Shown: positions 1,058 through 52,122 of the stretch, piece by piece
Position numbering within the stretch: the first letter of the stretch is position 1
Layout of the letters: every line of letters begins with the position of its first letter
Source of the DNA: Chrysomallon squamiferum
Taxonomy: Eukaryota > Animalia > Mollusca
DNA length: 64,000 bases
Direction of reading: 5' to 3'
Assembly: GCA_012295275.1 (NCBI GenBank)
Contig: CM022677.1
Span: 15,128,001 to 15,192,000, forward strand
Notes under the pieces: model-generated
What the model saw: only the letters and a program-made list of their open reading frames with translations
Database searches by the model: none
Told to the model about the DNA's origin: nothing
Made by a program: the position numbers and the translations under genes

Positions 1058-1938
1058 CTGGAAAAGGAAAATAAAGAAAATTTACTGTGCTATTCCTTAT
1101 GATGTAATCAAACCATAAAATTCAGATAATGACACCTAAATGGGATTTACAGCAATTTCTGCAGTGCATAGAGTACTTTGTAAAGATTGCCCTACTCCAC
1201 GTTCATACATACATAAAATATACTCTGTTCCCAATTTAAATAAATTACCTGTTGTGAGCCTTTATTCAGTATTATAATAAACTGCTTGTGCTAATCTAGA
1301 AAGGCCATACAGAGCTCCATAAACCCATGTAAATTTGTCAGCCTTGTAATTTGACCAATTGCTCAACATGAATAGGGGTCATTCCATGTCAAATCACCCA
1401 TGTCATATCACCCCGTAAGTACCTTTTCCTATGCACAAACTAACTAAAACCAGTGAAAACCAGTATTGAGAGTATCTGTCACTAATCTTTTTTCTTTTTT
1501 TTGATATTATCAGCAATTTGCCAACCATAGTTAGGAAGAAATGAACCACATGCCCCAAAAGCTTTATTATTATTTTATGTATTTTTTTAAAATATTTAAT
1601 TGTAGTTTTATTTATAACAATTTGTTTCAAACTGATTTCATGGCAATGAAATATTTCTGAATTTACATATGGTAAAAGTCTGAACAGAGGAGAAAAATCA
1701 TTCAGGCTGCAAGTTATTAAAAATAAAAACAACATGCAAGAATGTTAGCAAGTTTATACATTAAGGTATTTTAATAATATAATCATTTTAAGCAGTGACA
1801 GTCCTTTCAAGTAGGAAATAGAATTTAAGGATATTTTGCCTACATGGAGATCATCTTGGTAATATTTGTACTAATGTCTATCAAAACCTGACTTTCTATT
1901 TATTGGCTGATTTATTGTTTCATGTTAAATTAACCTAT

Positions 1939-5420: not shown

Positions 5421-5637
5421 GGGTCATTCCATGTCAAATCAACCCCAAATTTTTTTTTTTTTTTTTAAACCCGACCGTTTCAGATTTTTATGAAACTTGG
5501 TATACTTGTTGACTGGGATCCCACAGCACCAAATCTGAATTATTGGCCGAATCGGATCAGTGGTGTGGGATATATGGCCCACCGAATTTTGAGATTTTTG
5601 GCAAAAATGGGCGTGACCACCAACCTTAGAACCCTCA
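5421..5637 (+). mobile_element. Intronic copy of the GGGTCATTC-start repeat
   Basis: Shares sequence with 160-755 (inverted part) and 1939-2172. Confidence 0.6.
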
Positions 5638-7146
5638 TTGATGCCTGGTGGATTTGCTGTTGTTGTTTTCTGTTTTTGGCTATGCTAGAACAGTTGAATA
5701 TCTGTGATTCATAGGTCACAATTAAACATGATCCATAGTAATCTGGCTATTTGTCTAGAGGTAATATTTCTTTCAGTTTAGAGGCTGTTTTAGTTCTTTG
5801 TTGGCCAGGTTAATGTAATTTGCTTTTAAATAAACCAGCCACGTCTTTGCATGTTTCCACTGTGTGCAGAGCTTCTCACATTTGCTGTTGTAACTCGTTC
5901 TTCTGAATAACATATAACCAGGTACTCTGCATATATTGCACCCATGAATCCACTGTGGGATATCCTTTAATATATCCTTACTATAAAATGATAAAGAGAA
6001 TTAGTCTGAGAACACCATGTGGTACAGACATTTGTTTTTCTATATTTCGGTATTTTGAACATGTGCAGTGTTAACTCAGATTTAACTCCAGTCTTTGTCA
6101 AAAGCTTTTTCTAGACAGCAAATGTAGGATTTGTTCTTTTAAATTTTTTTCTTTGAATGCATCCTTAATCTCTTGTCATATGGAGGTGATCTGATCTTTA
6201 GTGGATCCTTTTTATCACCTTTCCTACAGAGCGTTTTAAATTGATGGTGCTGAAGTGGTTTTAATTTATACTTTCCTATTTTGTGGATTCATATAGTGTG
6301 GATTTTCTCTCAGATTGTGCTACAGAGCTATTGTCTCAGCTTGCACTGAAGATCTCTCCAGCATTTGTGAAAGGGATGGAGGGAATTGGTGTAGCTGGTG
6401 CAAGTTAAATGATGGGATGGTACAAAAATGTCCAGGTTACACATGCTTTGAACAATGTTCAAACTACTTGTTTGTCAAAAATACGCCTATAAATAATGGC
6501 ATCAAAAACATTAACTATTAACAAGTTTGTTTTATTTGCAATTAAATAAAATCAAAGTCTCTATTAAATTTATTATACAAAGTGAAGTTCACTAATAAAA
6601 CAGGTAGCACTGCCGATGAATGGCGGGCAAACTCGTCATAAGCTGTAAGTGATGGCGGCCCCACCCTCTCTTATAGTATGTTGTGAGACCTCTGTATAAT
6701 CCATTTCCATTTTTTCCTAAAGTCGTCTTAAATGCTTCTTTCTGCCAAAAGCGAAGGTGTTGCCCATTTTTGTCATATGTCTACTTCATTGAAACAGGGA
6801 TTTTTTATTTGATTATTTTTCTTTTTTAATATGTTTTTAAATATTTATTCTGTGTCAAATCACCCAATGGGTTAAACCCGACCATCTCCAATTTTTATGA
6901 AACTTGGTATACACGTGTGCATTATTTAAATATATATTGCAAAAATAAAACAAAAAAGATGACACCTCTGCAACTTTTATATGTTTTAGTTAACATATGG
7001 GAGATTAACTTATCAAGGAATCGCTTTATTTCTTTCTTTTTTGCAAAAAAAAAAGCTTTTAAAAGAAGTTTATACTACGTTGACTGTTTTAGTTCCACAC
7101 TGAGTAATATGCTTATTAACATAGATAAAGTTACAGCTTAATGCTT

Positions 7147-7208
<62 letters not shown>

Positions 7209-9032
7209 GAGATAAATGCAAGTCTGCTGCTTTATTATACTGTAAAACCTTTTATAAATAATTTTTAACTGTTTTGAATATAAGAACTTCCATGACAGAT
7301 TAAAATATACTAACTAAAATTGTGAAAAACCTTGAAACAAATTTATTTTCTCTTTCATTCTTTCTTTTATTCTTCACTAGATAATAATAATAATAATAAC
7401 AATAACAATAACAATAACAATAATAATAAAAATAAAATAAAAATAATTCCTCATGTAAAAGCTGGTAATGTATTTTCCAAACTCTATCAGGTGCCAGTGT
7501 TCTGACTGTTGTTGTTGTTCTTTAGCTGTTGGATTCTCAAAGGCTTGGCATAACCCTTTGTATATAAGTACTGATTCATTTCATATTGGGATGTCACATC
7601 TCCTATATTGTCTCTAACTGGTCACATCTACAGATGACAAACCAACGAGTCACATTTATCAGTGATAAATGTCAATTGTTCTGTCAAACTGAATTATTTT
7701 GGTGGTTCTGATTAGCAAGTCATGATTTTGACAGATATACAAGATAAATAAAGATAATCATAAAGTCGAGAAAAAACAATTCTGAGTAGGGTGAATATAC
7801 TTTAGAGCATGGACAGTCAAACTTCTCTTATGTTGTTTCTAACATTTTGCAGAATGGATTGTTGTTATTGTAGGAGATCCTTATCATACTCTTTTCAGAA
7901 ACAAATATTAAAGATAAATGTAGTACAGCATTATACAGGTGTGTTAAAAAAATTATTTCTAGAAAATGTCCTATTTCATTGGGTTGAGCCTTCAGAAACA
8001 AACAAAATGAGACCAACATTTTTGAAATATCTTGAAAATTGAAGGAGTTGAGGCAATTTCAAATGCTGGAAAATGTACAATTTTTTTTATTTTTGTTTTA
8101 TTATGTCAAGTGGCCAAATACCGTGATCCTGAATAAAAAAAAAAAAAAACCTGATAAAAAATGCCTATGCCTTAAAAACGGATAAAAGAGAAGTGTTAAC
8201 AATTCTTGACATGTCTTCATTCCCTCAGATGGTGACGTCCATTACCATAACAAAGAATTGCGTTCAACACCATTTGCAGTCGAGCAAACCATGTTCGCAA
8301 TTACAAATTTCAATAAATGATCTATTGAAAGCGTATGTGTTTTTAAAAAAATAGTTCATCTTCTAAGCCTACTTATGTAAGGCAAATTAAATACTTTTTT
8401 CACAAGAATATTGGAGATACTTGTGGTTAATAGAAATTAAATTTTTGAAAGCGAACATGCGTGGAAATGTTTAGGACATCATCAAAAAAGATTTATTCTC
8501 AGAAATCTATAAGCTGTCATCAGGCCATTTTCTGAGTTTCCTCTCCCCATCTCCTACTACCGAGAATGATGTTATCAGTGATCATCCGAAAAGCAGAGAT
8601 ACTTGAAAGTGCATAATTGCTACATTATAAATATCTGTCTTCTTTTTGCTTAACATTAAGACTTTTGAACCACAATGTATATTTTAAATTTTGTTCTTAA
8701 TACTTCACAGATACTAACATAATTATGCATCTGAGGGTAAAAGATTTTCACAAAGTGACACTAAGTGACACAAAGTGATAATAAACTCAATATTTTGTGA
8801 AACTCACAATGTGAAAATAATTATTATAGGTACCACTTCAGCAATTGGTGTTTTGTTACACAACCCTATTACTAATATTAATAAATAAAATACAATGAAA
8901 TAAATATATAAAATAATAATAATAATAATTTTTTTTTTTTTTTTTTTTCGATCTAATTGTCTTTCTATTTGGAACTAAAAATTAGTACTTATTACTTTTC
9001 AAGATTTCTATCTTTATTGTTTTATTTTCAAG

Positions 9033-9332
9033 TTCCTTTGGAGAAAATTACTATAACAACTGAATCAATGCCAATAAAGCCAGGAATTCCTACACAAATA
9101 CATTGTTCAACCAACCCTTGCCGTCCAGAACCTGTAATCATATGGTTTTTAGATAGTACAGAGATAACAGACGGCATTACCAGCTCCACTGAGACAATTG
9201 CTGACTCTGGTACTATAGCAAGAAGCAGTTTAAATATAACATTTACTACAAAAGATAATGGGAGAGTTTTGAAGTGTACAGTTTCTGCTGGTGTATTTCT
9301 TACGTCATCTAATATCACTCTCAATATCCAAG
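9033..9332 (+). CDS. Ig C2-set domain exon, probably the next exon of the gene containing 4220-4519
   Basis: 300-bp exon, ttttcaAG acceptor and GTAGGT donor, phase 1/1 and frame-compatible with the previous exon. Encodes IHCSTNPCRPEPVIIWF...SSLNITFTTKDNGRVLKCTV. Confidence 0.85.
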
Positions 9333-9389
9333 GTAGGTTTCATTCACATTAATACATACTAATCTAGTACAAATTAGTATTATTATTAT

Positions 9390-11749: not shown

Positions 11750-12430
11750 GAACATCTTCCAAGTTACGAAGATTTATAAGGGGCCGCTGCAGCTCTGTTT
11801 CGACTTCAAGACACGTACAAATTAGCGACAAGATTAGCAGACGGTTTTATATATGAACGATATATACAGAGATTATCAGCAGAAGACTGTTATCAATTAA
11901 GTCGCCTTGCATACAAAATGAAAAAATACAAATATGTGCATATCTGGATGACGATAAGTCTCGAAAAAGTAAGAACAGAAAAATTTCAGAACGTATCTCG
12001 GTTAGAACTTCATGACTTTGACATACACGGTAGAGAATAATCGGGACAGATAGAACACGTTTTAGATTTGACAAATGAACAGTTAATGTTAGCTCGTGGA
12101 CTAGAACGTGTTCCGAACAGAAGAAAAAAGTATTCAAGTATATCAAAGCTTAGGAAAGAAAAGAGAAAAAATGCCAGAGTTAAAGAAAAAACAACTTTCG
12201 ATGCTCTCTGTCGTGGTGAAGACGTTATTAAAGTACGACAGCGACATCGTTTGAAATGTCGCTATCATTACAACAACAAAAATCCGCTTTTAATTGTTAA
12301 GCCTGATAAAGAAGAGATTCTGCATTTCTCACCGAAAATTGTTCTCTATCATGATTTTATCAGTGATGCTGAAATTGAAGACATTAAAACAGTTTCTATG
12401 CCACATTTAGAAACATCTGAAATCAGTTGT
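11750..12430 (+). pseudogene. P4HA: Intronless prolyl 4-hydroxylase alpha subunit (P4HA-like) pseudogene fragment
   Basis: LPSYEDL*GAAAALFRLQDTYKL (about 11755-11825), EDCYQLSRLAY, and FDALCRGE...LKCRYHYNNKNPLLIVKPDKEE...PKIVLYHDFISDAEIE match conserved P4HA blocks. It has stops and frameshifts, no introns, and ends before the catalytic HxD motif. Confidence 0.85.
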
Positions 12431-12806
12431 TATCAAAAGCAGCTTTTGCAGTTAATGTTAAACTTGGAGGTCATGATAGAGAAAGAAAAAAAAATTAAAA
12501 CTGATAGACCATTAACATTTGTAATACAAAAATATTCCACTTTTATGTTATTTTAGTCTTTAGAAATCTGCACTCTGTCTAAAACGGTATATCACGTTGG
12601 TCTCAATGAATCATCCGGTTTTGACAGTGTCCACTGTATTTATTTTTATTGTTTATATTTTAGTTATTTATCTTTACAATAATCTCTTACGTCTACAAAT
12701 CGTGCTGGGGATGGGTATTGAAATTACTTCTTAATTTTATTACACTGTATAAAAATTATCATATAAGTCATATTTATTTTTAATCTTCGCTGAATTTATC
12801 TATCGA

Positions 12807-14664: not shown

Positions 14665-16230
14665 TTATTTTGGTCTTTCTTTGATTAATTTATCGTCCAG
14701 CATGTAAATATACATTATGTCTTGCTCAGTTATAAAACTGCGCTGCTCTAAACCTTTTAGCAGTTCACCTGTCAGCTGAATTAACCGATCAGTAGAAACT
14801 CTTCCTGCTGCATCATCCTCATTTCCATCACTACTTTCTCCTTCACTGGCTTGTTGCTCTGGACTTACAACCATTCGTACAATTTCTGAGTCCGTATAAT
14901 GATGAACAACAGATGCACCGTCATCAACAGTCATCCATTCTTCATCCAGTTTAGATGCAAGATCCTTCGCAGCAGGATTGGTCAGATCACGAGCAAAAGA
15001 CAACAGATCACTTGTATGCTGTTTGTCCTCTGAAGACCTAATTTCTATAAAGATTTTCATCAGGTGCTGTCTCATATGTTAATCCTGGCCACAATTTGTG
15101 CCATCCATGTTTCAGTGTAGCAGGCTCTACAGATTTCCAAGCATTAGCAACACAGTAAACCACATCTCTCATTATATTCACGAATAAACTCACGTACAGG
15201 CTTCCCAGAGTTAACTTCACTCAGCAGGCGCCTCATAAAATGAGTACAATACTTCGACTTTAATGAATGTAATATTCCATTGTCCAGGGGTTGAATCAAG
15301 GAAGTGCAAATAGGTGGAAGATAGATACCGAAAACATTGTTCTTTACCAGGAATTCTGCTTTTGGCTGAGCGGAGCAGTTATCTAAAATAAGCATTATCT
15401 TACAATTACGGTCCAAGCCAACAGAGTCAGAATGAGCTCTTGCTTCGGTGACAAAACAGTTCTGAAACCAATCCAATAACAGTTCAGTTGTTGTCCAACC
15501 TTTTTCGTTGGTAATTTACAGGAATCTGTGTCATGCCTGTGAAAGCTCGAGGACGTAAATTTTCACCGATGACCAGTAACTTACACCTGCGTGTTCATGC
15601 AGCATTGGAGCAGCTCAGCACAGTAACACGGTCTTTCGATGCTTTATAACCTGTCGGCGATTCTGTATCCTCCGCTTTCAGTGTTCTTTTGGGTGTACAT
15701 TTCCAAAAGAGTCTCATTTGCGTTATAGACCTGGTCAGGACTTAAATTTTCATCACTGACCAACTTGGTGAACTCGTCAACAAATGTTGTTGCTGCTTCA
15801 TTGTCAGCTGATCTTTTTTCGCCACACACAGCACGAAACTTTAAGTCATGTCGTTCCTTAAAACGTTGCAACCATTCTTCACTGTAATCGCACTGATGTT
15901 CCAGTCCGAGTTCTTCATGAAATAGTTTTGCTTGTTCCTTCACAAGATCACCTGGCAGTTCGACTTCTTCACTTTCACGCAACTTAAACCACCTCGTCAT
16001 TACTTGATCTAGTTCTGCATTTTTACCAGGTTTCATTGTTTTCCTTTTAAACATCTGTTTTTTCGACTCACTGACAACAAAACATTTAAGTAACTTTTCT
16101 TTCTGTTTCTTTATGTCATAAACTGTCGAAGACCCAACATAATCCACATAAACTTCTCACAGACACGCCATTGTCAAGTCTTTTCTGCTATGGACAATGT
16201 TCGGTGTTTGCGCTTAACACCACAAGAAGC
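14665..16230 (-). mobile_element. Decayed pogo/Tigger (Jerky/CENP-B-like) DDE transposase
   Basis: Consecutive minus-strand ORF fragments: HTH (VGSSTVYDIKKQK), CENP-B HTH (WLQRFKERH..GE), YNANET, LILDNCSA, YLPP..TSLIQPLDNGIL, AWKSV...W.KL. Several frameshifts. Confidence 0.92.
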
Positions 16231-36143: not shown

Positions 36144-39100
36144 AGGTAAGCTATGTCTGCAAATGTGAAAGCTGGAGTGCATATGTAAGAAAGAGTGAGT
36201 ATTTCTTCTTGTGAGCAAGATAGAGAATACATGCATGTTCAAGAAGGAGTGTTCTTTGTATAATACACCCATTCTTCCTAAAAATAAACAAATGTTTTTC
36301 AAAAATACTCTGAAATACATACACTTCTGTGTATACTCTTTTCTCCTGTCTTTCTATCTATATATAGAAAGGGCTTTCAAATAAATGCCACTGTATTCAA
36401 AATTGGAAAAAGTAGCAGTACCCTATGTATCCACATTCTCTCTTACACACAGACACATAATATTATACAGCCATACATGTTTACACACTATATCTTTTAC
36501 ATTGACACATATCTGTCTTTCTGTCTCTGTCTACCTATGTATACAATACATATGCACTCTCAAAAACACATATAAAACACACACAAAACCACACATGATA
36601 TAGCCATTCTTTCTAACTCATATTCTCACAGTTTCTTGCTCAAATACTCGAATCATCCTGTCAGACATGTTCATCATTTCATATTCACTCTCTAAAAAAT
36701 ATCTTTTCACACACACACAGACACACACACACACACACACACACACAGTCACACTTTACCATCGTACAGTTGCTTACATCTATCATGTCTCTTAATCTGT
36801 TTGTCTTGGTATTTCTATATCTGTCAGTATGTTCCTCTGTGGCTTTGTATTTATCTTTGATCAGTGATCAGAAAGTGCAGGAGGCCCTATTGAGGGTAAC
36901 ATGTAATATCAATTTATTCAACAAGGTAATTTGAAGTTATATTGGTTTAATTATCAAAATTAAATAAAAATAAAATAAATAATTTCTTCATGAATAATTA
37001 TTTAAAATGAAATTATGATAGTAATTTTAATCATTTTTTTGATCTCAGACTTTTTACATTATTAAACAATGTGATATGTTTAATTAAACATGCTAAACAT
37101 CATAAGTTTAAATCTTTGTAATAGTTTAAATTAATGATTCTGTATTTTATAATATCAGTGTCCATAGATTGTCCTGACATTGTATCAAGAAAAAACATTT
37201 AGTTAAATTATGTTTTATTTAGGAATCTGGAAATGTATGCATACTCAGTGTTTCTGTATATTTTGATAAAAAATTAAATAAAATAAAGATAAAAATATTT
37301 TTATAAATTATTTAGAAATACTGATATCTGTACTGTTGTCAGCTTGCCATCACATGATTTTACATCAAGAACAAAATAACTAATATTTACTATTGCAGAA
37401 TTCTCAGTATCCACACACACTTCAACATTTTACCATTAGTAAACAAATATAGCTATATATTAATGTTTCTATTTTTTTAAAAATAATATTTACTATTTTA
37501 GAATTCTCAATGCCCACATATATTTCAATGTCTAAAAGATTTTACAATGGTGTCTTTGTTGTGTGACGCTGATGTCAACACTCCTACCTATGTCAGCAAA
37601 TACTACTGGGTAAAGTTATTATAACAATTTTACATTTGAATTAGTTTGAACATTTAAATAAAGAGTATTGGAAGTATTATCAGGAATTTGAAATTTACTT
37701 AAACCAGTGTTGTTGTAAAATATTCTTAACAGAAATGTCCCAATAGATTGTTCTGTATAATTAATTAAATAATAGAAAGTACAAAGTATAAACAGTTAAT
37801 AACACTATATTATTACACATCATTATTAACATGTTAAGTTATTAAGTACAGAGATAGAGCTAGTTTATAACAGTAAACTGTTATAACTTTATTAACATAT
37901 TTGTTTATAAGTACTTATGTTAACAACAAAATTTAAGATGATAATCAAGGATTTGCTCATGTGAAAATATTTAAATAAATTTTGTTTCCTGGTTTTACAG
38001 GGATCTTTGGATTTTTAGGTTTTCAGCTTAAATAATGTCGAAGATTCTAGAAAGTTGTCCAGATTTCAGATTCAAAGACCAGGTGAGCCTGTCATTACAC
38101 AGTGGACTGTGACAAAAACAAAACTGTAAACTATGAATTAATTTATCTACTGTTTAACTTGATAGTGAACTTGATTATCAAGTCTTTTAGATTTGTGTTG
38201 TAAAATAGGGTTGAAACCAAGAACTAAAGTGGATGTTTTGTCATCAGTGGTAGAAGTAGAAGAGCCTCAGTCAATAAAGGACAAGGAGAAGAAGTTTGCA
38301 TGGAGCAGATTACAGTTAGTATACACAGAGTTTGATAGATTTCAAGTTGATATTATTGTAATTATTCCAGTGAGCAGAAGAAAAAGTTAGAAAGAACAAA
38401 TACTCTGATGTTAAAGTGAATACTTAATTCTTGCATTTGCTAAAGATGACATTGATTTGGGGTTTACTGTAAAATATCACATATGCACAACTGATAACAT
38501 ACCAGTGTCAGAACTGTACAGAAGAATTTCACACAGTCAGTATCAGAAAGCCAAGGAGCTGATCAAGAAACTTATAAAACAAGATGTAATTTGACCCAGC
38601 CACAGTCCATATTCATCTCCTACTGTTATAATGAGAAAAACAGACAACACAATTCATCTGTGTGTGGACTACAGGTGGCTGAATGCTAAAACTAGGAAAG
38701 ACTGCTTTCCACTACCTACAATAGAAGAGTCATTAGATGCTTTGCACAGAGCAAATTGGTTCACTACACAGATATGGCCAGTGAATACAACCAAGTAGCA
38801 CTTGAGGATAAAAACAAAGACAAAACTGCATTCATCACTCCAATCGGTTTGTTTGAATCAATCGTATGCTGTTTGGTTTATCAGGAGCATCAGTCACATT
38901 TCAAAGACTTTAGAGTGCAGATATTTCAGTGTTCTGTTTTTTTATGTGTACATAGATAAACTAGACGAGGTATTTAAAATTTTAAAACAGCATGAGCTCA
39001 GACTAAAACCAAGCAAACGCTGTTTCCTTAAGAAAGAAGTGAAATATCTAGGACGTGATGTCTAGAGATGGGGTAGTTACAGATCCAGACAAAATAAAGG

Positions 39101-42100
39101 CTGTTTTTGAATGGGAAGGTCCAAAGACACCAAAGGACCTGATGTCATTTTTGCAGTTTGCCAGTTACTTCAGATGATATGTTAAAGGATTCTCAGTTAC
39201 TGCTGGACCTTTGCATTCTTTGGTGAACAGGTTCCAAGATAAGAAAAATCAAGCATTGTTAAAGTTCTTGGGATGAGAGTTGTCAAAAGAGATACTTTAA
39301 AAGAGATGCTAACTTCAGCTCCAATATCAGGAAACACTGATTTAAGTGAACTGTTCAAGTTTTCAAGGTGTGGGAGCAGTTCTGTCACAGGAGCAGAATG
39401 GGCAAAGGTAAGAAATTACATATGTTAGACAGAGCTTGAGACCCACTGAGAGAAACATGAATAATTACAGTTACATGAAATTAGAGCTTGTTGGTCTGAA
39501 ATGGGCTGTGACTGAAAAGATTGAAAATTATCTTCTCAAACATCAATTTACCATATATACAAACAACAGTCCACTAAGTCATCTTGATACCACAAAGTTA
39601 CATGCAGTGGAATAAACATGGGGCTCTCAGCTGGTAGAATTTGATTTTGATGTGAAATATCATTCAACACAATGAGAATGCGGATGGTCTATCCAGGAAG
39701 AAATTTCACAGAATTATTTCTACTTCAGTGGAAGCTGCTTTAGAGATACTGCTAGTAGTACAGAAGTTCCACATACAATGAGACAAGTTATAAAAGGTGG
39801 TGGAAGAAAAGTCGCACAGTAAACTGTAACAGTGGAACAATTTTTAGAAGAACTAGCAGTGATGCAGGCAAAAGACAAGTTAGTAAGGAGATTGCTGTAT
39901 TACATGGCTACCATGCAGAGCTGAGAGAAGATTAGAAGAATCAGGTTTCTTCACACTAATCTGGCAATGGCAAAGATTATTTCTTGAAAACAAAGTACTT
40001 TACAGAAAAGCAAACGTCCCAACTTGGCAAATTTGCTGTTCATCTTATTTAGAAGAAATATCATCACATCCCTTCCTCTCTACAAACATAAATACAATTA
40101 TAATTAATAAATACTGTCTTAGAATGTCTTAGAAAATATCCTTTTGACCTGAAAAACAGAAATATTTGCAGATTGTGTTGAATGGTTTAATTATCTAAAT
40201 CTGTTGTGTTTTCTAGATTCAAGGATTTTCTGTCTGAAATGTTTAATTATGTGTGCACACATGGACAGGAAGACACATTTCACTTTCTTTTATAATGGAG
40301 CCAGAAACAGTCTGATGGAAGCACTAATGTGATTTGATTCTGTGCCTACCCACACTTCATACACTGACTTACACATTGACTAGTGAGAAGTGTTTGATAA
40401 TTATACAGAAGACACAGCAGTCAGTTTAATTCATAGTTTACAGTTTTCTCTCTCACTTTATTCCAGTGATTAACCACTGTGAAATAAAATACTTGATAAC
40501 CAATTTGACTAGAAAATAAAATAAGGAAAGAAAATAATTAGGAAAAGCAGCTAAAAAAAATTCATAAATCACCTTTCTCCTCGATATAACAGCTATTGAA
40601 ACAGACCTATTATTTTACTAATTATTTATTTATTATTATTTTTATTATATGTAAATTAACAGAATTTAACTTCAAACACTGTAAATGTTTAAAAAAAAGA
40701 CCAAAAATTAAAACCTGATATCACATAATACTAATTTTCATTTAGAATTTAACAATTTATAAAACTGTTTATTTCTTTAAAACATTATTCCGAAATCTGT
40801 AGAAATTAATGGTGGTTTAAGACCTGGCACAGACACAATACAAGACAGATTATTAATGGAGCTCAGTGTGGAATGGGAAACGGTAATGTTTCAAGGATAG
40901 AGTGAGCTCTGGGATCATTTCAGATTCTTATTTATTAAAACTAGTTGTAATTAAAACATTTATCAATTTAAATACTAGTATATTAAAAATTTAACAAACT
41001 ATTAATCATATATATGTATGTTATAAGTTTTAATATACTTCTATGTTATATTTACAGATGACTGAACTTCCACTGCAGTCCATTTTGTCCACGATGTTGA
41101 TCATGTCAGTTCACATGACAGAATTCTCACATTATCTCTATGTTGTCTGAGCAGAATGTTCTCTACAGACCAAAGGTTTGAAACTGCTGGTTTTTATGTG
41201 TCAAAGATATAATTAAACTAATACTATATAAGAAAATAAGTAAAACAGAAAAGTTATTATTAACAAAAATCTTATATACAACATCCTATGTTTTGGAAAT
41301 TAAAAAATAAATAAATAAATAAATAAAAAAGATAAAAGCAAAGTGAACTCTTTATTATTAAAATCCAAGAAAAAAAGACATCCAAAATATTATTTTGTTT
41401 ATTTATGGTGAACAGTCTTGTTAATTATAAAGTTTGACACAAAACTGAAGAAACTTGCTGGTTATGAACACTAAAAATTATAAACTTCTGTATATTTTAA
41501 AAAATAACAGACAAGCAGATAATTTTCAAGAGATATCTTAATCATGATATAAGATGTAAAATGCATTTATTATGACTAAATAATTTGTAATTTTTAATAC
41601 ATCAGGTAACTTTTAAATAATAATTTGCTATCCTTTCCAATGATAAATGTTATAGTTTTTAAGTAAATCAATTTTATTTATCAGTGATAAGTTTTGTTTG
41701 TTATTTTTACAGGATACACAAGCCCTTGCTGACCACAACAAGTTCTATCAGGCCAAGGATGACCACTTGACCAGGCTTGTAGTACAATTCAGTGAAGAAC
41801 AATCACTTCTCCAGTTTGTGGTGTTAAAAGAAATTTGTACAAACTCAGAAACTCATATGAGTTCAATGTTTTGTAATCAAATGCTGAGTATAATGGAAAG
41901 GTAATTCAGTTTACAACTAGATTTTATAAACTGTAAAATATAAATCATTTAATGTCATATGAGAATATTTTAATATTATTATTATATATAATGTTCTTTT
42001 TTTAAATAATGGTATCTGTAGATGCAAAGAAAAAGACAAAACGTGACATTGATAAAGCAGTTGGGAGAAAAGGACTACTTTAGAAAATGTATCTTCAAAA

Positions 42101-42570: not shown

Positions 42571-43029
42571 TTAAAAACATTACTTGTGTGAATCATGGAC
42601 TGTTCTTATTGAAGAATTTATAATATTGTGATACTGAATTTAGATTCAAAGTTACAATGTTGTTCATGAAAGATGTGATCAAATTTATTCAGTATACTGA
42701 ATGTTTGGACCAGACACAGCACCAAGTACAGGCAAGTCTGTGGTAAAAGAAGTTACTTTTTTAAAATGATTTAGTGTCAGAAATCCTTTATTACTGACTT
42801 AAAATAAAAGTACAGACTTCGTATTAAAAAATGTTTGGTTTAAGGGAGATACTTTTTTTTTTTTAAATTTAATTTTATATTTTTAAATAATTTTGTTTTG
42901 ATAGAATACTGTACTTAATAATCTAATCAAAACTTAAAATAAATAAATACCAAGAGTTCTGGTATAAATGTACCCTATAAAACATCGTTAAAACATAAAA
43001 TGGAATCAGTTGACCTATTTAAATAACAG

Positions 43030-43590
43030 AGTTGAACAGACTGGCTTTTGGCTTTTTTACCAAATGTACTTTAACACCCGAAGGTGCATAGTCACGTGAC
43101 ATAACGTCATCTCAAAATAAAAAAAAAAGTATATAGGGTGGGGGGTGAAAGAAAGGACATGATATATTGTCAACCTAACTCTTGTGATTTGTAAAAAAAA
43201 CAAAGATCTTCATTACTGGCTTTTGGCTTTTTGACCAAAAGTACTTTTAACCCAAAGGTGCTTAAGCTTCGCCCGAAGGAGCTTAAGTTAAAGTACATTT
43301 GGTCAAAAAGCCAAAAGCCAGTAATGAGGATCTTTGCAAATCACAAGAGTTAGGTTGACAACTAAACTCTTGTTATCGTAAAAAAAAAAAAAAAAGTTCC
43401 CCATGATTGGCTTTTGGCTTTTGGCTTTTTAACCAAATGTACTTTTGACCCGAAGGTGATAATGTTCCTTCGGGCAAAGCCAAAACCTGAAGTTAAAAGT
43501 ACATTTAGTTAAAAAGCCAAAAAGCCAACAGCCAATATGAGTTAAACTTTTTTTTTTACAATAACAAGAGTAGAGTTGAAATATATCATG
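43030..43590. repeat. Rearranged terminal hairpin cluster of parvovirus-like element 1 (one half hairpin and two full hairpins)
   Basis: Stems 43167-43250/43287-43361 and about 43362-43449/43492-43578. Loops contain CCCGAAGG...CCTTCGGG. Arms carry reiterated (TGGCTTT)n. Confidence 0.88.
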
Positions 43591-43763
43591 ATTTTCTGCG
43601 ACTTCTTTTTTGTTTTGTTAATAATGTTATTTTTCATTGTATTTATATATAAAATTAATATGACAAAGTAAATTTAATTATTTAACTTTTATTAACGTAA
43701 CAATGTAACTATGATTAACATTTTAAACAGCATCAGTGATATCATTTGTTTATGATATAATAT

Positions 43764-45898
43764 TCATTTATAGGAATGAAAAATGTCAAACACTTTATAA
43801 TTAATTTGCGATGGCAGAATAATGTTTTCGATATCAATGTCCAAAGCTTGGTTATTATTCATATACGCTTCTGGAACTGTATTATCAGCAGGGTTATTGT
43901 CATCTTCAGATGCTATAAACCGATCTTGAGAATGTTCATCTGACGTGTTACCACTTATCATATCACAGTCTCATCGTTTTGCTTTCAGAAGTTTTCGTTT
44001 CTTCTTTGGAGATTCATTGATGATGTCTTCATTCTGATTGAGATCTTTCTCTTCATTTTCTATATAGGCTTCGATGTTATCGTATTGCCTCTTTACTCCA
44101 CATGATTCTTGTGATTCGTTGTCAAAAGAGTCATTGAAGTAACTATACTTAGCTTGAATTGTCTTGTCGTTTTGTAGTGGATTGAGTTTATCGTTAAAGA
44201 ATTGTTTATCGTTTTCAATCGGAACCATTATTTCGTCTTCAGATGGATCTTCGCACAAGGTGAATAATTTAGGATGTAGCAATCCGTAAGCTCGTTTTAG
44301 TGTATTGCTTTTCTTCAAGTGCTCGATGAAGTACAATCTAGTTTTCATAATACTCATTGGGTTGATGTAATGTTCTGTCCAAAAGGAATGTTGCTGTTTA
44401 AATTACATAAGCTTGCTTTGCAATACACCGGTGTCGTTCCCTTTCGCTCTCATGTTGCCTTACTGCCACTGAGAAGATCTTTGTATTTGTCTATGTTTAC
44501 TTGGGTAATAGCTATTTCTTCTCTAATAACAATTTTTTTGTCACCCAGCATCTGCCATGGAAAATTGTCTTTCGCTATTTTACCGGAACATGTCAAAGGT
44601 TCAAACAAACTCGACGACAACATTGTCTTGCCGGAATCGCTCTCGCCTTGTAAATAGATTCCAATTTTCTTTTTTGCCTTTGCCTTTCAAAAGGGTATTC
44701 ATTAGTACATAGAACCATCACTCTGGTATCTCTTGTTCCTGGCACCAACTGTTAAATAGTTTCAAAGAATCTTCTGGTGTCATATAGTTTTCTAGGTTAT
44801 CGTCGAGAGCTTTTATCTAATCGTAGGCACTTTTATCTGCTTGTTCCATTAGGTATTTGGTTCTTGCTGCTTTAAATATTTTTTTCCAGATATGTTGGCA
44901 ACAGCATTACAAAGAGCTTTAAATTCATTGCTCGATGTATCGAATTTGCTTTTTGAGCATATTGAGTTTATTCACATCTGGATACTTCTGAACCAATTTG
45001 TCAAAAAAAAAGTCGAATGTGTCTGCTGATTTGGTAGACATGAGGTGACTTGGAATCTTTTTCAGGCTTGTTAGTTGGAATATCATCATCAATGTCTATA
45101 ATGTTCTTTGTTTCTTGATTTATCTCCTTTACTGTCATTCCTTGTCCATGTTGTAACACGTCACTGTGTTCATTTAAAAATTCCTGAACCGTCATTTTTT
45201 TCTTGGGAGGCTTAACTTCAAATGTCTTTATATCTTCGTTGATAGACGTGTCTTCGAATACAGTATTTTCATTATAATTATCTTTAGCCAGTTTTTTCTT
45301 GATCCAGTAATAGATTCCATTTATTGAGCATGTCCGGACAATTTGTTCCTAAAACATTTTCTCGTCATCTCTTATTAAGTAGTTCATGAATTCAGATACA
45401 GAGTATTTGTATGGCTGACGTAACTTCCTTAACTTTATATACCCTTTTTCAGCCAGAACAGCTCAGTGTAAACGTCTATACTGACGATCTTGACTTGGAT
45501 GTGTCATCGTTGTTGTCCATATGATATGGACATGACTTCCATTTGTAGGTATGTTGGAGTCCATATCACACGATTTATCGTGGTACACTAACAGCATCTT
45601 CCAGTTTTATTCCTTAACATGTTTTAAGTTCAGTTATCACTCTATCCTGACCTCTCATCATGAACTCCGATTGCGGAGTCGACCAATGGTCCACGCACTT
45701 GTCTAGAATGTCTTGGTGGTCCATGACGAAACTCTTGATATAATTCTTTCCCATGGCGTAAACATATTTTCCGTTCTTATCTTTTCAAGGCATCTTGGAA
45801 CCAGATAGTTGGGATGCACCAAGTCATTACTCTTTATGTCCCAATATAATTGAGTAATATTCAGAAGTATTAGTAGCGTCTTCAATATATTTCTCCAT
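43764..45898 (-). pseudogene. NS1: Parvoviral NS1/Rep pseudogene (element 1)
   Basis: ATG at 45898. HUH motif GSHVHIIW..PSQDRQYRRLH* (about 45540-45465), Walker A IGIYLQGESDSGKT (about 44665-44625), YKDLLSGSKATCERKG, IMKTRL..YGLLHPKLF. Colinear with 49050-51227 but broken by stops and frameshifts. Confidence 0.93.
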
Positions 45899-45971
45899 AG
45901 TGGTGCTGGATTATAACCATGCTTCTTTAACGTGTAGCAAGTCAGTTAATGACAAACGACAAAAATATTTT

Positions 45972-46040
45972 TGAACGTCAGCTTTATTTATACCAATATT
46001 TACATGACGTCATTGATATGACGTAATGAGATGTTACGTG
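45972..46040 (-). promoter_or_regulatory. NS promoter of element 1 (CRE/ACGT motifs plus TATA)
   Basis: Minus strand reads TTACGTCAT-N4-ATGACGTCATGTA-N7-GTATAAATAAAGC, nearly identical to 48934-48979. Confidence 0.75.
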
Positions 46041-46148
46041 ATCTGTAACACAACAGACTTTTCACTGTGTTCTTTTTGGCAAATAGTTCTTTAAAATAGT
46101 AATTAACGATAAGTAGTAAAATAACTAATATGAACAATGAATAATTAT

Positions 46149-46269
46149 TTAAATAGGATAAGAATAATCAGTTTCGTTTTCTTTAATTTAGGAAACCGTT
46201 CTGTCTCCTGTATGTTCCATGTAATGGCTAGACAACTCGTCATATCGACTTTCTTCGATTCGAATTGTC
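46149..46269 (-). pseudogene. VP: C-terminal remnant of the capsid-like gene of element 1 (truncated by the gap)
   Basis: Minus strand gives DNSNRRKSI*RVV*PLHGTY / GDRTVS*IKENETDYSYPI*, matching the end of the 707-aa ORF (DNWNRRRNRRGQLWPVHGAYGDRTVETMANSMDWSYPI*). Confidence 0.85.
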
Positions 46270-46469
46270 NNNNNNNNNNNNNNNNNNNNNNNNNNNNNNN
46301 NNNNNNNNNNNNNNNNNNNNNNNNNNNNNNNNNNNNNNNNNNNNNNNNNNNNNNNNNNNNNNNNNNNNNNNNNNNNNNNNNNNNNNNNNNNNNNNNNNNN
46401 NNNNNNNNNNNNNNNNNNNNNNNNNNNNNNNNNNNNNNNNNNNNNNNNNNNNNNNNNNNNNNNNNNNNN
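46270..46469. other. Assembly gap (200 N) between the two viral elements
   Basis: Exactly 200 N; the distance and relative orientation of the flanks depend on scaffolding. Confidence 0.99.
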
Positions 46470-46495
46470 AGATTCGACTACCCAGCTATAACTGA

Positions 46496-46747
46496 AATAA
46501 TAGGGCTGATAGTATATTATTAGACCCTGCTATAAATATAGGAACATCTGTAGATGAATCGGCTGTTGAAGGTATATCTGATTATACTAAAAATCAGATT
46601 GAACAAGCAATTAATGAACTAGGGAATTTCGTAAATACAGAAGGAAAATATATAGATACCGACGTCACACCCAATGAACGTAATCAGATAGAGGCTGAAG
46701 AAGACGAAAACGTATCATATATATTTACGCGTATACCGGTTTCATGA
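46496..46747 (+). CDS. 3' part of an acidic upstream viral ORF whose TGA overlaps the capsid ATG (ATGA)
   Basis: 83 open codons (NNRADSILLDPAINIGTSVDESAVEGISDY...EAEEDENVSYIFTRIPVS*) with no ATG. Preceded by one TGA at 46493 and then the gap. Confidence 0.5.
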   Translation, partial: NNRADSILLDPAINIGTSVDESAVEGISDYTKNQIEQAINELGNFVNTEGKYIDTDVTPNERNQIEAEEDENVSYIFTRIPVS

Positions 46748-48867
46748 CAAAAGGCAAACGACTTTTGACGAAGACAGAGGTCACTCGTCTGTGGGCTATA
46801 GCAAAATCTAAAGCATTTAATAAATTAGCTGAACTAAATGTCCCCTATTCAAAACGACAAGAAAGGTGGCTTCAGATCAGACGTCAGTATCCAAATATAC
46901 AAATTCCGAATAACGATTTCTATCAGGCAATTCAGAATATTGGGCAAGACTATAACTCTATTAAAGATTCGGACGAAGACGACCCTTTCGGCACCCCTTT
47001 ATTCTACGATAACGAAGAACAACAAGGAGATTTACACGACTCATCCAGACATCCAGATCAATCAACTATGAAACGACATTCATCTGAACCATCTGGAGGA
47101 CCGGATGCAAAGTTTAGAGATAATAAACAATTATCTAGCAAAGTCTCTCAAGATGTATTAGACAGGTCTAATTCTAAAGGAACCTATTTACAACCTGAAG
47201 AATCGGTGATGGAACCGGATTCAATAATGAATGAAGAGGTTACAGATACTGGTGGAAGTGAAGCAATAGAAGGTGCACCTATGGCGTCCGCTACTGGTAA
47301 TAATGTATTATACCAGGGTTTTGGTGGAACTACAAAAGTATTAGATCCTAGATACATTACGATTAAAAAGACATTTAAAAGTACATTTACTAGTACAAAT
47401 AATTTTACAAAAGAACGAAAAGCAGAAATGAAAATATTAGATAACAATACAGATGATGTAAATTGGAAAAAAGCAATAGGAGATCCAAATGTTTGTGAAT
47501 TTAAATTTAACCATGGTGGACATATTATTCCATATTGGTATAAAGCTGCTAGTACTAAACCTGATGATTGGAATTTGCCAGATGATTTTCTTGGCTATAA
47601 GGTCAAGAAAATAGGTTTTAATATAAACAACATGATTATTCATGTATTGAATAATAATAAATCAGATCCTAACGAAGTTCCTGTTATGGCACCACCTAAT
47701 TCACGTGTATGGACATTTACAGATATACATAATGATTACGGTTTACCAGAAAATAATTTAATGTTACATCATAACCATTACTTCAGAGATGAAGAATGTA
47801 TGGATAGTGTTTCTGAACGTAGCATAAAGGTACAACCAGATAGAAAGCTATACATGCCTAGTGATATGGCCATGCAATTATTAAATCATGCATGGACTGG
47901 TACAGATGGTATTAATTATAAAGCAGAATCTCCAAATTATATTTATGATATGAAGAAACACGACGGTTATCGTGAAACCGTTATTAGTGCAGGAGGCTTT
48001 GCATTAGATTATACTTGCAAAGATTCTCCGTTAATATTGTTTCCATCTGAAACATCACATACTCTGAACTTTACAGATGTAACAGGTTTATGTCAAAAAT
48101 CTAAATATCAATGTGCTAATGAAAACAAAGGCAATTTAGAAGTATGGCCTACTCATGATATAATAATTACTGACAATTCTAAACATCCTATGGGTACAGC
48201 TATATGTTGTTATTTCAATCATCAATATAGACGGATACATTATACAGCATGTTTTCAAAATAAAGCATCTAATGTACTTGGTGCACCTTCAATGGTAGAT
48301 GATGGAGGTACCAAATATAGTAATCAAGGTGTAATGCATAACAATTCAAATAATCCGAATGTTGATGCATGTAAAGATGGATCACATAGACGTACATACC
48401 AATGTAATAGACCTCCGATATTCATGATTGGATTATATCCTGATGTAGAAAAAACTAGTGGAGGAACTACATTATTTTTTAACTATCATGCAAACATTCA
48501 AATAACTTATTACAGTGAAATAGAATTTGTAGTTAGAACAGGTATGTGTCCTAAATACATTCCAATTGGGTTGGGTGGATGTCCAGGTAATATGTTAGGA
48601 CTAACATTCAAGGGAAATGAATCTACACCAATGGGAAATAAAGATAACGTTAAACATACAGAACAAGATCAATTTTTGGGTGAAACAGAAGCAAAATATA
48701 AAGAAAGAATACAAAAAACATGGAAAATGCGTTGTTTTGCTCCTGTTTGGGATAATTGGAATAGACGTAGAAATAGACGTGGACAATTATGGCCAGTTCA
48801 TGGTGCATATGGTGATAGAACAGTTGAAACAATGGCTAATTCAATGGATTGGTCATATCCAATATAA
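46744..48867 (+). CDS. VP: Parvovirus/densovirus-like capsid protein (707 aa, uninterrupted)
   Basis: Intronless ORF with a low-complexity acidic/Ser N-terminus and Gly-rich segment (TGGSEAIEGAPMASATG..GFGG). It then has beta-strand-like blocks resembling parvoviral jelly-roll strands (HIIPYWY, GYKVKKIGFNI, RPPIFMIGL, ANIQITYYSEIEF). Adjacent to NS1 and a hairpin. No PLA2 motif seen. Confidence 0.8.
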   Translation: MTKGKRLLTKTEVTRLWAIAKSKAFNKLAELNVPYSKRQERWLQIRRQYPNIQIPNNDFYQAIQNIGQDYNSIKDSDEDDPFGTPLFYDNEEQQGDLHDSSRHPDQSTMKRHSSEPSGGPDAKFRDNKQLSSKVSQDVLDRSNSKGTYLQPEESVMEPDSIMNEEVTDTGGSEAIEGAPMASATGNNVLYQGFGGTTKVLDPRYITIKKTFKSTFTSTNNFTKERKAEMKILDNNTDDVNWKKAIGDPNVCEFKFNHGGHIIPYWYKAASTKPDDWNLPDDFLGYKVKKIGFNINNMIIHVLNNNKSDPNEVPVMAPPNSRVWTFTDIHNDYGLPENNLMLHHNHYFRDEECMDSVSERSIKVQPDRKLYMPSDMAMQLLNHAWTGTDGINYKAESPNYIYDMKKHDGYRETVISAGGFALDYTCKDSPLILFPSETSHTLNFTDVTGLCQKSKYQCANENKGNLEVWPTHDIIITDNSKHPMGTAICCYFNHQYRRIHYTACFQNKASNVLGAPSMVDDGGTKYSNQGVMHNNSNNPNVDACKDGSHRRTYQCNRPPIFMIGLYPDVEKTSGGTTLFFNYHANIQITYYSEIEFVVRTGMCPKYIPIGLGGCPGNMLGLTFKGNESTPMGNKDNVKHTEQDQFLGETEAKYKERIQKTWKMRCFAPVWDNWNRRRNRRGQLWPVHGAYGDRTVETMANSMDWSYPI

Positions 48868-48900
48868 TATAGCGTATGAATACAGTTAATAGTCTTTTAA

Positions 48901-49000
48901 TAACGTTACGTTCAATTTGTCACGTATACCATATTACGTCATAATAATGACGTCATGTATATAATAGTATAAATAAAGCAACGTTCAAAAGTTTTTCAGT
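48901..49000 (+). promoter_or_regulatory. NS promoter of element 2: ACGT/CRE cluster, TATA box overlapping AATAAA, and Inr
   Basis: TTACGTCA at 48934, TGACGTCA at 48948, TATAAATA at 48968 (AATAAA at 48972), TCAGT at 48996. Conserved in element 1. Confidence 0.78.
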
Positions 49001-49049
49001 CGTTACTGATCATTCTATACTATTTAACATAATATATAGATAGATATAA

Positions 49050-51227
49050 ATGGATCGTTTCGTAGACTTGCCGGATGAAACTTATTATAGTGTTTTGGTG
49101 GGTCATATCAATTACGACATGGTCCATCCAAAATAACTGGTACCGAGAAGTCTTGCCAAGGATAAGGATGGTAATTTTATTTATGCAGTGGGAAAGCAAT
49201 ATATAAAATCCTACCAGATGGATATGCAAGAGGTTCTAGACAAGGTAGTTGACCATTGGTCTAAACCTGGCTATGAAGAATTGTCACGAGGCCAAGATAG
49301 AGTAATAAACGAATTAAAAGCTTTTTTGAGGAATAAGTCATGGAAGACTCTACTTGTATACCACCAAAAGGACTGTCAGGCCATAACGGATCATACTACG
49401 TATGGGACACATTGCCACATAGTATGGAAAACCACTCTCAAAACGCCATCACAAGATAGGCAATATAGAAGATTACATCGTGCCATCTTGAATGAGGGTG
49501 GATATCTTAAGATATTAAAATTAAAGGATCCACAACGATCATCATTGCAGCATTACATGAAATATCTAATGAACGATAATGAGAAACAATTTATGGGAAC
49601 AACCGACCAGAGTATGTTAAACATATGGAATGAGATAGAGAAGGAAATAAACGAGAATGACAATGAAATACTGAATATCTTGAGTGACTTTTTTGACCAA
49701 TCGGGTTCTAAAAAATTGGATAAAACAATAGTATCGAACATAAAGGATCCAGTAAGAAAACAAGACATTATTGATAAACCATCTACATCACATTATAATA
49801 ACAAAGGAATGACAGCTGCTGATGTCAAATGTGACAATACGTTAATCCAAGCAATGGATACATCAGACATTATAAAAGATGAAAAAGTGGACAAACCAGT
49901 TATCCCGTCACATTTGATTAACACAAAATCATCGGAGACATTGGAATTTTTCTATACCTTGATTAAACAGTATCCTGAAATAAACAAACTGAACTTACTA
50001 ATTGGAAAATTTGATTCAGGAAGCAACGAGTTTAAAGCTCTCTGTAATGCCGTTGCTAACTCTTCGGGTGAAAAGTTGTTCAAAGCAGCTAGAACTAAAT
50101 ATCTCGAAGAACAGGCAGATAAGTCAGCGTATGAACAGATCAATATCATGAACGATACAATTGACCATTATATGAATCCTGATGATAGTTTTAAGATCTT
50201 TAATTCGTGGTGTAGGGAACAGGAAATACCAGAAAGATGGTTGTATACATTGATTGTAGCGTTGTTAAAGGGAAAGGGCAAAAAGAAGATAGGGATTTAT
50301 TTTCAAGGAGAATCAGATAGTGGGAAAACAATGTTGTCAAGTTCCCTATTTGAATCCGTTTCCACAGCAGGAAAGATTGCCAAGGATAATTTTCCTTGGC
50401 AAATGTTAGGAGGGAAAAAGATCATATTAGGAGAGGAAATATCGATAAATCAATCCAACATTGACAAATATAAAGACCTGTTGAGTGGTTCTAAAGCAAC
50501 CTGCGAACGAAAGGGAACGACACCTTGTTACTGCCGAGGGAACATTTGTTTGTTAAATTCAAATACTAAATTCGGCGACGGCCTCACCACATCGCAGATA
50601 AGAATAATGAAAACACGATTATTCTTAGTAGAAGGACTTAAACGAAGTAACATACTTACACAATGCTATGGATTATTACATCCCAAACTATTCGTTGTTG
50701 GAAGAGAACCATCCGACGATGAAATGACACTCGCTATGGAAAACGATCGAGAATATTTCACGAATATAAACAATATTCATCAAAATGATAATACATTTGA
50801 AGGACGATTAAGCTATTTCAACGATCACTTCGATAACAGTCAAGAGGATTCACCTACTGAACATACCAATAATATTAAAACAGAAATAAATGAACAGCCA
50901 CCGACAGAATACATAATAATTCCAGATTCAGATGATGAAAGTACATACAATCCGTCACAAGACATGTTTATTCAATCTCAAAATAAAATCAGAGAATAAT
51001 TACAGGATAAAAAAGGAATGAAACGCAAAAGGTATGAGGTGGATACTGAAGACATTTCGGATGATTCTATTGACCCTAATTACATAACAATTGATCATGA
51101 GCCAGAAGATCCGACAGAAAAACGTTTTAAGTTTTATATCCCACCATCCCAACCATTTGAAACAATGTTCACCGAGACAATACCGGAATCACAGTTTAAC
51201 ATCTTCAACAAATATAAAAACGAATGA
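49050..51227 (+). pseudogene. NS1: Parvoviral NS1/Rep (HUH endonuclease plus SF3 helicase), about 725 codons with two in-frame TAA stops; catalytic core 49188-50999 open
   Basis: HUH motif GTHCHIVW, candidate catalytic Tyr in YMKYL, Walker A GESDSGKT, Walker B ILGEE, B' KDLLSG..CERKG, motif C LLNSN. ATG 49050 and the 51018-51227 ORF are in the same frame, separated by TAA at 49134 and 50997. Confidence 0.95.
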
Positions 51228-51491
51228 ACATATATAAAGACTGTTCTTTTAATTTAAATTACTAAATATATAATGATAATGTTTTAACGGATTAATTAAT
51301 GTTGCATATAGTTATATATTATAATGTTAATAAATATATATTAAAAGTTATATAGTCTTATTATTAATTACATATTATAATGTTAATAAATATATATTAA
51401 AAGTTATATTTTCTTTTTATTATTTATATTATATTATATATTATAATTATATATTATAATAATAATTAATAAACATGCCGGATGATGATAG

Positions 51492-51873
51492 ATCCCAACT
51501 CAACTCTTGTGTAATTTTTAAAAAACAAAGTATAACTGTAATCGATTTTTGGTTTTGCGGTCTTAAAAGCCAATGTGTACTTTTAGCCCGAAGGTGACTA
51601 GCTCCTTCGGGCGTAGCCCGAGCCCTACGGTCATAAGCTAAAAGTACACATTGGCTTTTAAGACCGCAAAACCAAAAATCGATTACAGTTATACTTTGTT
51701 TTTTAAAAATTACACAAGAGTTGAGCTTATGACCGTAACTAGCTCCTTCGGGCGTAGCCCGAGCCCTACGGTCATAAGTTAAAAGTACATATTGGCTTTC
51801 AAGGCCAAAAAAACAAAAAACCATTCGAGTTATACATTGTTTTTTCAATAATAAACAAGAGTTGGGTTGGGAT
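51492..51873. repeat. Terminal branched (T/Y-shaped) hairpin of element 2 with a duplicated loop and second arm
   Basis: 89-bp arms 51499-51587 and 51637-51725 appear perfectly complementary. Ears are GCCCGAAGG/CCTTCGGGC and CGTAG/CTACG. The loop is repeated at about 51738-51778, followed by a diverged arm ending GTTGGGAT at 51873. Confidence 0.92.
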
Positions 51874-52074
51874 GATCGCTGACTGTAAATCATAAAACAA
51901 AACACCTGAATTGATGTAAGGAACGTGTTTTTATTAGTTTGCGTGCATTTCAATACGAATATTGAGTCCTTTTTTTCACATTCGCAGTTTACAAAAGGCA
52001 CTTTACGTACACATTCCTATTCACAAAATAAATTTAAATAGGATAAGTTTACATTTGTATAGACAGATAGATAT

Positions 52075-52122
<48 letters not shown>

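Follow-up and report, generated by a model that had tools for sequence, protein, structure and literature searches.

The window analysed here, a stretch of 64,000 nucleotides of contig CM022677.1 (positions 15,128,001 to 15,192,000 of the forward strand), contains a parvovirus-like element (copy A, Table 1) whose parts all lie on the plus strand, in the order of an open reading frame (ORF) of 707 aa for a predicted capsid protein (VP), a 182-bp spacer, an NS1 gene with HUH endonuclease and SF3 helicase domains, and a hairpin with a perfect 89-bp stem. The visible part of copy A amounts to 5.4 kb and begins at the edge of a scaffold gap, with its left end out of view. A second copy (copy B, 43040–46269, minus strand) lies head-to-head with copy A across this gap and shows the same order of capsid end, promoter-like element, NS1 and hairpin. 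In an earlier interpretation made from the letters of copy A (hereafter, the sequence-only reading), the VP ORF, spacer, NS1 and hairpin were all placed where we find them. That reading passed over the stops in NS1, the gap on the left, the partial second hairpin and the minus-strand copy B, and it took the element for a virus genome, whereas it is a decayed endogenous copy.

Table 1. Features of the two parvovirus-like copies and their borders (positions in the window)
Feature	Position	Strand	Description
Copy B hairpins	43040..43578	-	two in tandem (~43578-43359, 43361-43167) and a half copy (43085-43040)
Copy B NS1	43764..45898	-	degraded, with numerous stops and frameshifts; matched by tblastn in three frames (E 9e-81, 2e-47, 9e-19)
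Copy B promoter-like element	45955..46027	-	two CRE-like sites, TATAAATAAA
Copy B capsid C-terminus	46149..46269	-	frameshift and stops; directly upstream of the copy B promoter and NS1
Scaffold gap, 200 N	46270..46469	.	conceals the left ends of copies A and B
ORF0 remnant	46472..46747	+	upstream ORF with an in-frame stop close to the gap; ends in ATGA, an overlap of its TGA with the VP ATG
VP	46744..48867	+	707 aa, intact; predicted single jelly roll ~190-615, C-terminal extension, no PLA2 domain
Spacer, likely internal NS promoter	48868..49049	+	182 bp; CACGT 48921, TTACGTCA 48934, TGACGT 48948, TATAAA 48968 overlapping AATAAA 48972; no hairpin
NS1	49050..51227	+	HUH endonuclease and SF3 helicase; ATG at 49050; in-frame stops 49134-49136 and 50997-50999
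Terminal hairpin, copy A	51499..51725	+	89-bp perfect stem, branched 49-nt tip, 272 nt past the NS1 stop
Second, partial hairpin, copy A	51726..51873	+	141-nt period, 87% identity
Host repeat adjoining the hairpin	51873..52097	+	right integration junction as assembled

The 707-aa product has no significant match to any Pfam family, and nothing useful was returned from NCBIfam or by the sequence search of PDB. A profile search of 1.84 billion representatives (clustered at 50% identity) identified 62 homologues, 35 of these at E ≤ 1e-30. The AlphaFold model of residues 180–707, built from an alignment of 37 sequences, has a mean predicted local distance difference test score (pLDDT) of 66.9, with 271 of the 528 residues at 70 or higher. 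In the comparison of this model with PDB using Foldseek, all 45 of the matches listed are parvovirus capsid entries (best E 1.3e-9). Likewise, parvoviral capsids occupy ranks 1–20 in VIA-align (Z 14.6–8.6, 229–291 residues aligned, root-mean-square deviation 3.8–6.2), with a Z of 6.0 at rank 21, and the top rows in BFVD are unclassified Parvoviridae proteins. The model is roughly equidistant from densovirus, hamavirus and adeno-associated virus (AAV) capsids. In the ESM Atlas, VP is nearest to parvoviral VP clusters (0.92, 192 shared features), a lead only given the low recognition. Together, the model and its structural matches make a strong case for the prediction, also put forward in the sequence-only reading, that the 707-aa ORF encodes a parvoviral capsid with the eight-stranded single jelly roll typical of Parvoviridae. 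One distant homologue (P0065, 984 aa) carries an N-terminal domain similar to the parvoviral phospholipase A2 (PLA2; PF08398, E 4.5e-11), which is absent from the 34 other members scanned and points to gain or loss of PLA2 inside the VP lineage. Selection for keeping VP open was considered and set aside: the three breaks all fall outside VP, which is not significant (p ~0.15).

The NS1 of copy A fits the motif patterns taken from the available text of PMC9896142, namely HxH (GTHCHIVW), Walker A (GESDSGKT, 50307–50330), Walker B (IILGEE) and B' (KDLLSGSKATCERK), and matches Pfam Parvo_NS1 (E 2.3e-8, 33.8 bits against a cut-off of 20). The HxH motif is kept in all six aligned NS1 rows, and the NS1 profile aligns with the Rep protein of AAV2 in the helicase region only (E 2e-10); the protein thus has both the HUH and the SF3 domain of a parvoviral NS1. 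A word-indexed search in which 7,984 candidates were scored, with classified exemplars not among the direct comparisons, yielded seven NS1 homologues, none of them named. Within the lineage, identities to the NS1 of the window range from 27% to 53%. The genus criterion quoted in the accessible part of PMC9001828 is an NS1 identity of at least 35–40% over >80% of the length to a member, and by this threshold the lineage likely includes several genus-level groups.

The spacer between VP and NS1 folds no better than its shuffled versions (z = −1.3 for DNA folding; 21 of 200 shuffles equally stable). It contains two CRE-like (cAMP response element) sites and TATAAATAAA, in which the TATA box overlaps the poly(A) signal; the labels CRE, TATA and poly(A) are those that we assign from consensus motifs, not from a promoter tool. 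This block (48933–49004) is 84.9% identical between the two copies over 73 nt (E 7e-16), in comparison to only 67–69% for NS1. We propose that it is likely an internal NS promoter that would also terminate the capsid message. At the other end of VP, the overlap of the ORF0 stop with the VP start suggests coupled translation of ORF0 and VP, which would proceed from a left-end promoter inside the gap. No homologue of the ORF0 remnant was found among the 109 proteins compared or among the extra ORFs of L001, a contig described below.

The arms of the copy A hairpin (51499–51587 and 51637–51725) are 89 nt each and 100% complementary, with a folding z of −25.6 and none of 100 shuffles as stable. 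The hairpin region of copy B (43000–43620) folds equally well (z −25.7) and is 67–74% identical to that of copy A. Exact stems of at least 20 bp with loops of up to 300 nt are confined in the 64 kb to two places, namely the two viral ends. The hairpins at each of these ends are arranged in tandem and are not identical (~1.5 and 2.5 units), with the CTCCTTCGGGCG arm common to both copies. The possibility that the hairpin is a host miniature inverted-repeat transposable element was ruled out, given its confinement to the two viral ends and a divergence about that of NS1. Thus, of the hairpins that parvoviruses have at both genome ends, the right one is present in both copies, and the left ends fall in the gap.

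The NS1 of copy B is 66.9% identical to that of copy A at the nucleotide level over 894 bp and 69% over 252 bp, and its capsid remnant corresponds to VP residues 670–689 and 690–707 in two frames (scores 48 and 50, none of 500 shuffles reaching either). Given that the copies are only 67% alike, they likely derive from different viruses. Their adjacency could be an effect of scaffolding.

The same gene order is found in L001, an independent metagenome contig of 6,039 bp on which all ORFs are intact and lie on one strand: an ORF of 244 aa, VP of 730 aa, 56 bp, NS1 of 583 aa and an ORF of at least 260 aa. Its VP and NS1 are only 29% (E 3e-44) and 27% identical, respectively, to those of copy A, and, as in copy A, an ORF precedes VP. 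The ends of L001 form an exact inverted repeat of 14 bp, against a maximum of 10 in 300 background draws, and are the only terminal structure seen there; no terminal direct repeat of 8–59 nt was detected. The two additional ORFs (204–938 and 5259–6038, the latter running open into the right inverted end) belong to no Pfam or NCBIfam family, and the last one has no ESM Atlas hit above 0.84. Both spacers of L001 (939–977 and 3171–3226) contain AGGTAAGT with TTAG ~25 nt further on, resembling a splice donor and acceptor, as would befit an intron of very small size or the alternative splicing of transcripts from a single promoter.

Thus, VP precedes NS1 on one strand, with no palindrome between them, in all three sequences with a readable order (copy A, copy B and L001), in a departure from both canonical parvoviral arrangements, the monosense one with the NS cassette to the left of that for VP and the ambisense one with converging cassettes. 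The presence of the shared order in copy B and in the distant, intact L001 indicates that it is not an artefact of assembly. The sequence-only reading had inferred a lineage with swapped cassettes and had argued that permutation of a normal genome would leave the hairpin between VP and NS; both points are borne out by copy B and L001. By the genus threshold quoted above, which is that of the International Committee on Taxonomy of Viruses (ICTV), the evolutionary distance spanned by the VP-first order would exceed a genus. A VP tree joins L001 to the clade of the window with a support of 87; it was built by a quick method from 28 rows, with fragments excluded, and comes with a long-branch warning, so that it does not show the ancestry of the gene order.

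Several lines of evidence place the element in a host genome. The hairpin abuts a repeat that is 87% identical over 225 nt to 13499–13288 of the same window (E 9e-75) and is followed by (AC)21 at 52077–52119; copy B is contiguous with non-viral AT-rich DNA. Elsewhere, the window contains Ig C2-set exons, a Tc5/DDE transposon, a PHD-finger remnant and microsatellites, in a setting of low GC (~0.2–0.4 per kb). More than half of the words of the element are present in 6 of the 11 listed sequencing runs, from three studies of one organism, and the run with the largest share may be the source of the window itself. Read contigs were compared for four of these 11 runs (X1, X2, X3 and X7). Long contigs from X1, X2 and X3 have an identical second NS1 stop, and none of the three differences listed for them falls there; at the first stop, the runs vary, with X3 in agreement with the window. 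The element is thus joined to host DNA in the assembly and carries a disabling mutation common to the samples. In view of the host repeat at the junction, the host genes and transposon in the window, the run coverage and the common second stop, we conclude that it is an endogenous viral element and not a free genome.

Coverage of 46470–51400 is complete (30 of 30 bins) in three DNA runs, with continuous depth and no joint listed at the VP-NS boundary, and the read contigs of X1, X2, X3 and X7 extend ~80–460 letters into the gap. In X1–X3, many variant VP contigs (90–99% alike) were seen over 46470–48944 and few over NS1, hinting at extra copies of the capsid gene in the host genome. The RNA run X7 was not used as evidence of expression: it covers 18 of 30 bins, mostly in VP, and holds only 0.10 of the words, with differences of up to ~8% in its long pieces, and contigs cannot rank expression.

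Among the host features, the broken Tc5/pogo-like DNA transposon lies at 14665–16156 on the minus strand (HTH_Tnp_Tc5, E 3e-9; DDE_1, E 3e-21). Host exons were found at 756–1121 (minus strand), 8957–9352 and 12041–12556 (both plus strand), with two Ig C2-set domains among them; one exon stretch, with no Pfam hit, may resemble prolyl 4-hydroxylase alpha. By eye, 38500–40000 (minus strand) is presumably a decayed reverse transcriptase/RNase H region from a retrotransposon of the Ty3/Gypsy type.

The VP family extends well beyond the window. For 12 of the 20 VP clusters looked up (from a total of 62), the longest contig is 5.8–7.5 kb, none exceeding 7,535 bp. A related set, with identities of 52–55% for VP and 49–53% for NS1, is found on contigs of 8,418–452,437 bp that each encode several copies; these likely represent endogenous arrays of the lineage, clustered in another genome. 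The proteins P0001–P0031 are encoded on contigs of 8,418, 60,905, 297,455 and 452,437 bp, each with several VP and NS1 proteins or pieces; P0009, P0016 and P0023 are full-length. Scans of viral contigs returned no locus (one relative was reported without a locus), and neither did those of genome contigs and phage records.

In all recognised parvoviruses, NS occupies the left part of the genome and VP the right, according to the available text of PMC11357303. Nevertheless, the VP-first order is already in print. Shan et al. (2022; PMC9001828) described two unclassified parvoviruses from goose cloacal swabs, MT138329 (7,244 nt) and MT138334 (7,497 nt), with the structural ORF upstream of NS, a further major ORF that putatively encodes a transglutaminase-like domain, and no close classified relative (best identities 24% and 28%); in the accessible sections of that paper, the host is left open and the strand of the ORFs is not given. 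These genomes resemble the element of the window and its relatives in the position of the structural ORF, the extra ORF, the occurrence of relatives on contigs >7 kb and the lack of a close classified relative. By contrast, the element is endogenous and has a hairpin and a conserved putative internal promoter, and the same sections of that paper contain no description of genome ends, a promoter, the capsid fold or any endogenous copies. No transglutaminase-like ORF was found in the visible part of copy A, where the extra ORF is cut by the gap, or in L001. One VP homologue, with 26% identity over 458 columns (E 1e-46), is entered in GenBank as "hypothetical protein [Parvoviridae sp.]" (QKE54994.1). 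Going by its accession series, it may come from MT138329 or MT138334; its genome was not found in the papers or supplements. The layout is therefore not unreported. The sequence-only reading had named a described genus with this layout as grounds for giving up its claim; the order itself has been described, and our search, with most subscription journals and ICTV proposals outside its reach, identified no classified genus with VP first and no other paper on MT138329, MT138334 or the provisional genus names.

Compared with the six subfamilies of Parvoviridae (PMC13426907, in the part available), the element has in common the HUH and SF3 domains of NS1, the predicted single jelly roll of VP, a branched terminal hairpin and a monosense plan with two cassettes. 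It differs in that the cassettes are swapped, its VP matches no Pfam capsid family and no PDB sequence, and its relatives are found on contigs of up to 7.5 kb (with L001 at least 6,039 bp) as opposed to the ~4–6 kb of linear single-stranded DNA that Parvoviridae package in T=1 particles of 22–30 nm. Accordingly, it agrees with Parvoviridae in NS1 and predicted capsid fold, disagrees in cassette order, and is not filed in any subfamily or genus. Swazi bat-associated megaparvovirus 1, compared by its description in the accessible part of PMC13426907, similarly has a large genome (6.4 kb of coding sequence), extra ORFs, a long C-terminal extension of VP and a host inferred from endogenous copies; however, its order is PLA2-ORF, unknown ORF, NS1 and VP, and its VP is without the long N-terminal region of the VP in the window. 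The large "Cah-bearing" parvoviruses of Buck et al. (bioRxiv 10.1101/2024.03.25.586562), also compared by description from the available portion, combine parvoviral NS1 and VP with an extra ORF in >5 kb but are reported there as mostly circular; they may already include the lineage of the window. What is new, then, is the breadth of the family, its likely link to invertebrate hosts, the conserved candidate internal promoter, the termini, the structural assignment of the capsid and a family-wide capsid profile.

With good confidence, we interpret copy A as an endogenous, NS1-broken copy of a parvovirus-like genome with the predicted capsid upstream of NS1 on one strand and a hairpin downstream, likely belonging to an unclassified lineage with large genomes that likely infects invertebrates. 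Of this, the VP-first order (in three sequences) was observed directly, as were the motifs of NS1, the stops, the hairpins and the host flank; the capsid fold is predicted. Among other explanations, the one that we take most seriously, although we consider it unlikely, retains the lineage and the order but makes the genome circular, with one palindromic origin between the end of NS and the start of ORF0/VP, replicated by rolling circle and integrated as tandem arrays; the sequence-only reading had left this alternative out, and it is the main open rival. Inverted contig ends would look the same whether they are two inverted terminal repeats or one broken palindrome; the last ORF of L001 is open into the right end, and joining the two ends would form a 14-bp stem with an 8-nt loop. 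Large (>5 kb) parvoviruses "may have circular genomes", as stated in the available part of Buck et al. (bioRxiv 10.1101/2024.03.25.586562), and three of the related contigs (8,418, 60,905 and 297,455 bp) each encode several VP proteins or pieces with at least one NS1 protein. Yet, L001 lacks the terminal direct repeat, the hairpin of the window has the long stem and branched tip of a parvoviral telomere, and in neither copy is the hairpin followed by sequence from ORF0 or VP. Whether the genome is circular or linear, VP precedes NS relative to the palindrome.

We regard it as very unlikely that the element is not integrated and that contigs of a persistent virus were scaffolded into the host assembly. 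The gap on its left side and the many VP variants in the runs, such as a virus population could yield, would fit this scenario, but the hairpin is contiguous with the host repeat, NS1 is interrupted by nonsense codons of which one is identical in three runs from three studies, and copy B is heavily decayed in addition to being contiguous with non-viral DNA. Parvoviral integrations are often concatemeric, so the order could also stem from an ordinary NS-VP genome, through a head-to-tail concatemer that lost the junction hairpin, or through misassembly; indeed, among the 32 pieces listed, no single contig spans the region from the VP stop to the NS start whole. This explanation is largely refuted already and, in our estimate, extremely improbable: this seamless junction is seen in both copies, which are 67% identical, and, with 56 bp between intact ORFs, in L001 at 27–29% protein identity, and read depth is continuous across it. 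Furthermore, the VP-first order was reported independently (Shan et al., 2022; PMC9001828, in the part accessible).

Several points besides the unspanned junction weigh against our interpretation. The order is readable in three sequences only, and since the left ends of both copies fall in the gap, two telomeres and linearity are presumed. A first AlphaFold model of VP, made with five sequences, was unusable (pLDDT 29.9), and the TM-scores of the later model to solved capsids are modest (0.27–0.37 by query). The promoter and poly(A) site are predicted from motifs, and L001 has no CRE-like block, only a TATAAA over the VP stop. Finally, the likely assignment to an invertebrate host is based on the GC of ~0.2–0.4 per kb and on general genome norms.

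By analogy with Parvoviridae, we propose that the source virus had a linear single-stranded DNA genome of ~6–7.5 kb with hairpin ends. A left-end promoter inside the gap would produce an ORF0/VP message, with VP translated through leaky scanning or through re-initiation where the two ORFs overlap (ATGA); this message would end at AATAAA 48972, overlapping the TATA box of the internal CRE/TATA promoter that would drive NS1. As in the parvovirus biology covered by the available text of PMC13426907 and PMC11357303, NS1 would nick and unwind the hairpin in rolling-hairpin replication, and VP would form a T=1 shell. Snap-back replication or integration likely gave rise to the tandem hairpins as by-products. 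It is also likely that two related viruses reached the germ line at nearby sites and that NS1 then decayed in each.

Going further, we lean, somewhat cautiously, towards the view that these sequences represent a subfamily-level lineage of large (6–7.5 kb) parvo-like viruses of invertebrates, comprising dozens of members at the rank of genus or species, that the capsid-before-replicase order is ancestral there and that the internal CRE/TATA promoter drives NS1, its TATA box also serving as poly(A) signal for the capsid message; the endogenous copies would then provide the first host link for the VP-first genomes from bird swabs. Being invisible to Pfam and to sequence searches of PDB, the VP family goes unnoticed in viromes or is entered there as "hypothetical"; with the alignment built here, it is detected. 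The gene order is a genuine departure from the textbook plan, although not one first observed here. A broad lineage with VP first shows that the plan with NS ahead of VP is not required and raises the question of timing, that is, of early NS1 versus late VP expression with an internal NS promoter, and the endogenous copies, with their shared hairpin and putative promoter, offer a route to the host and the cis-elements of the orphan VP-first genomes.

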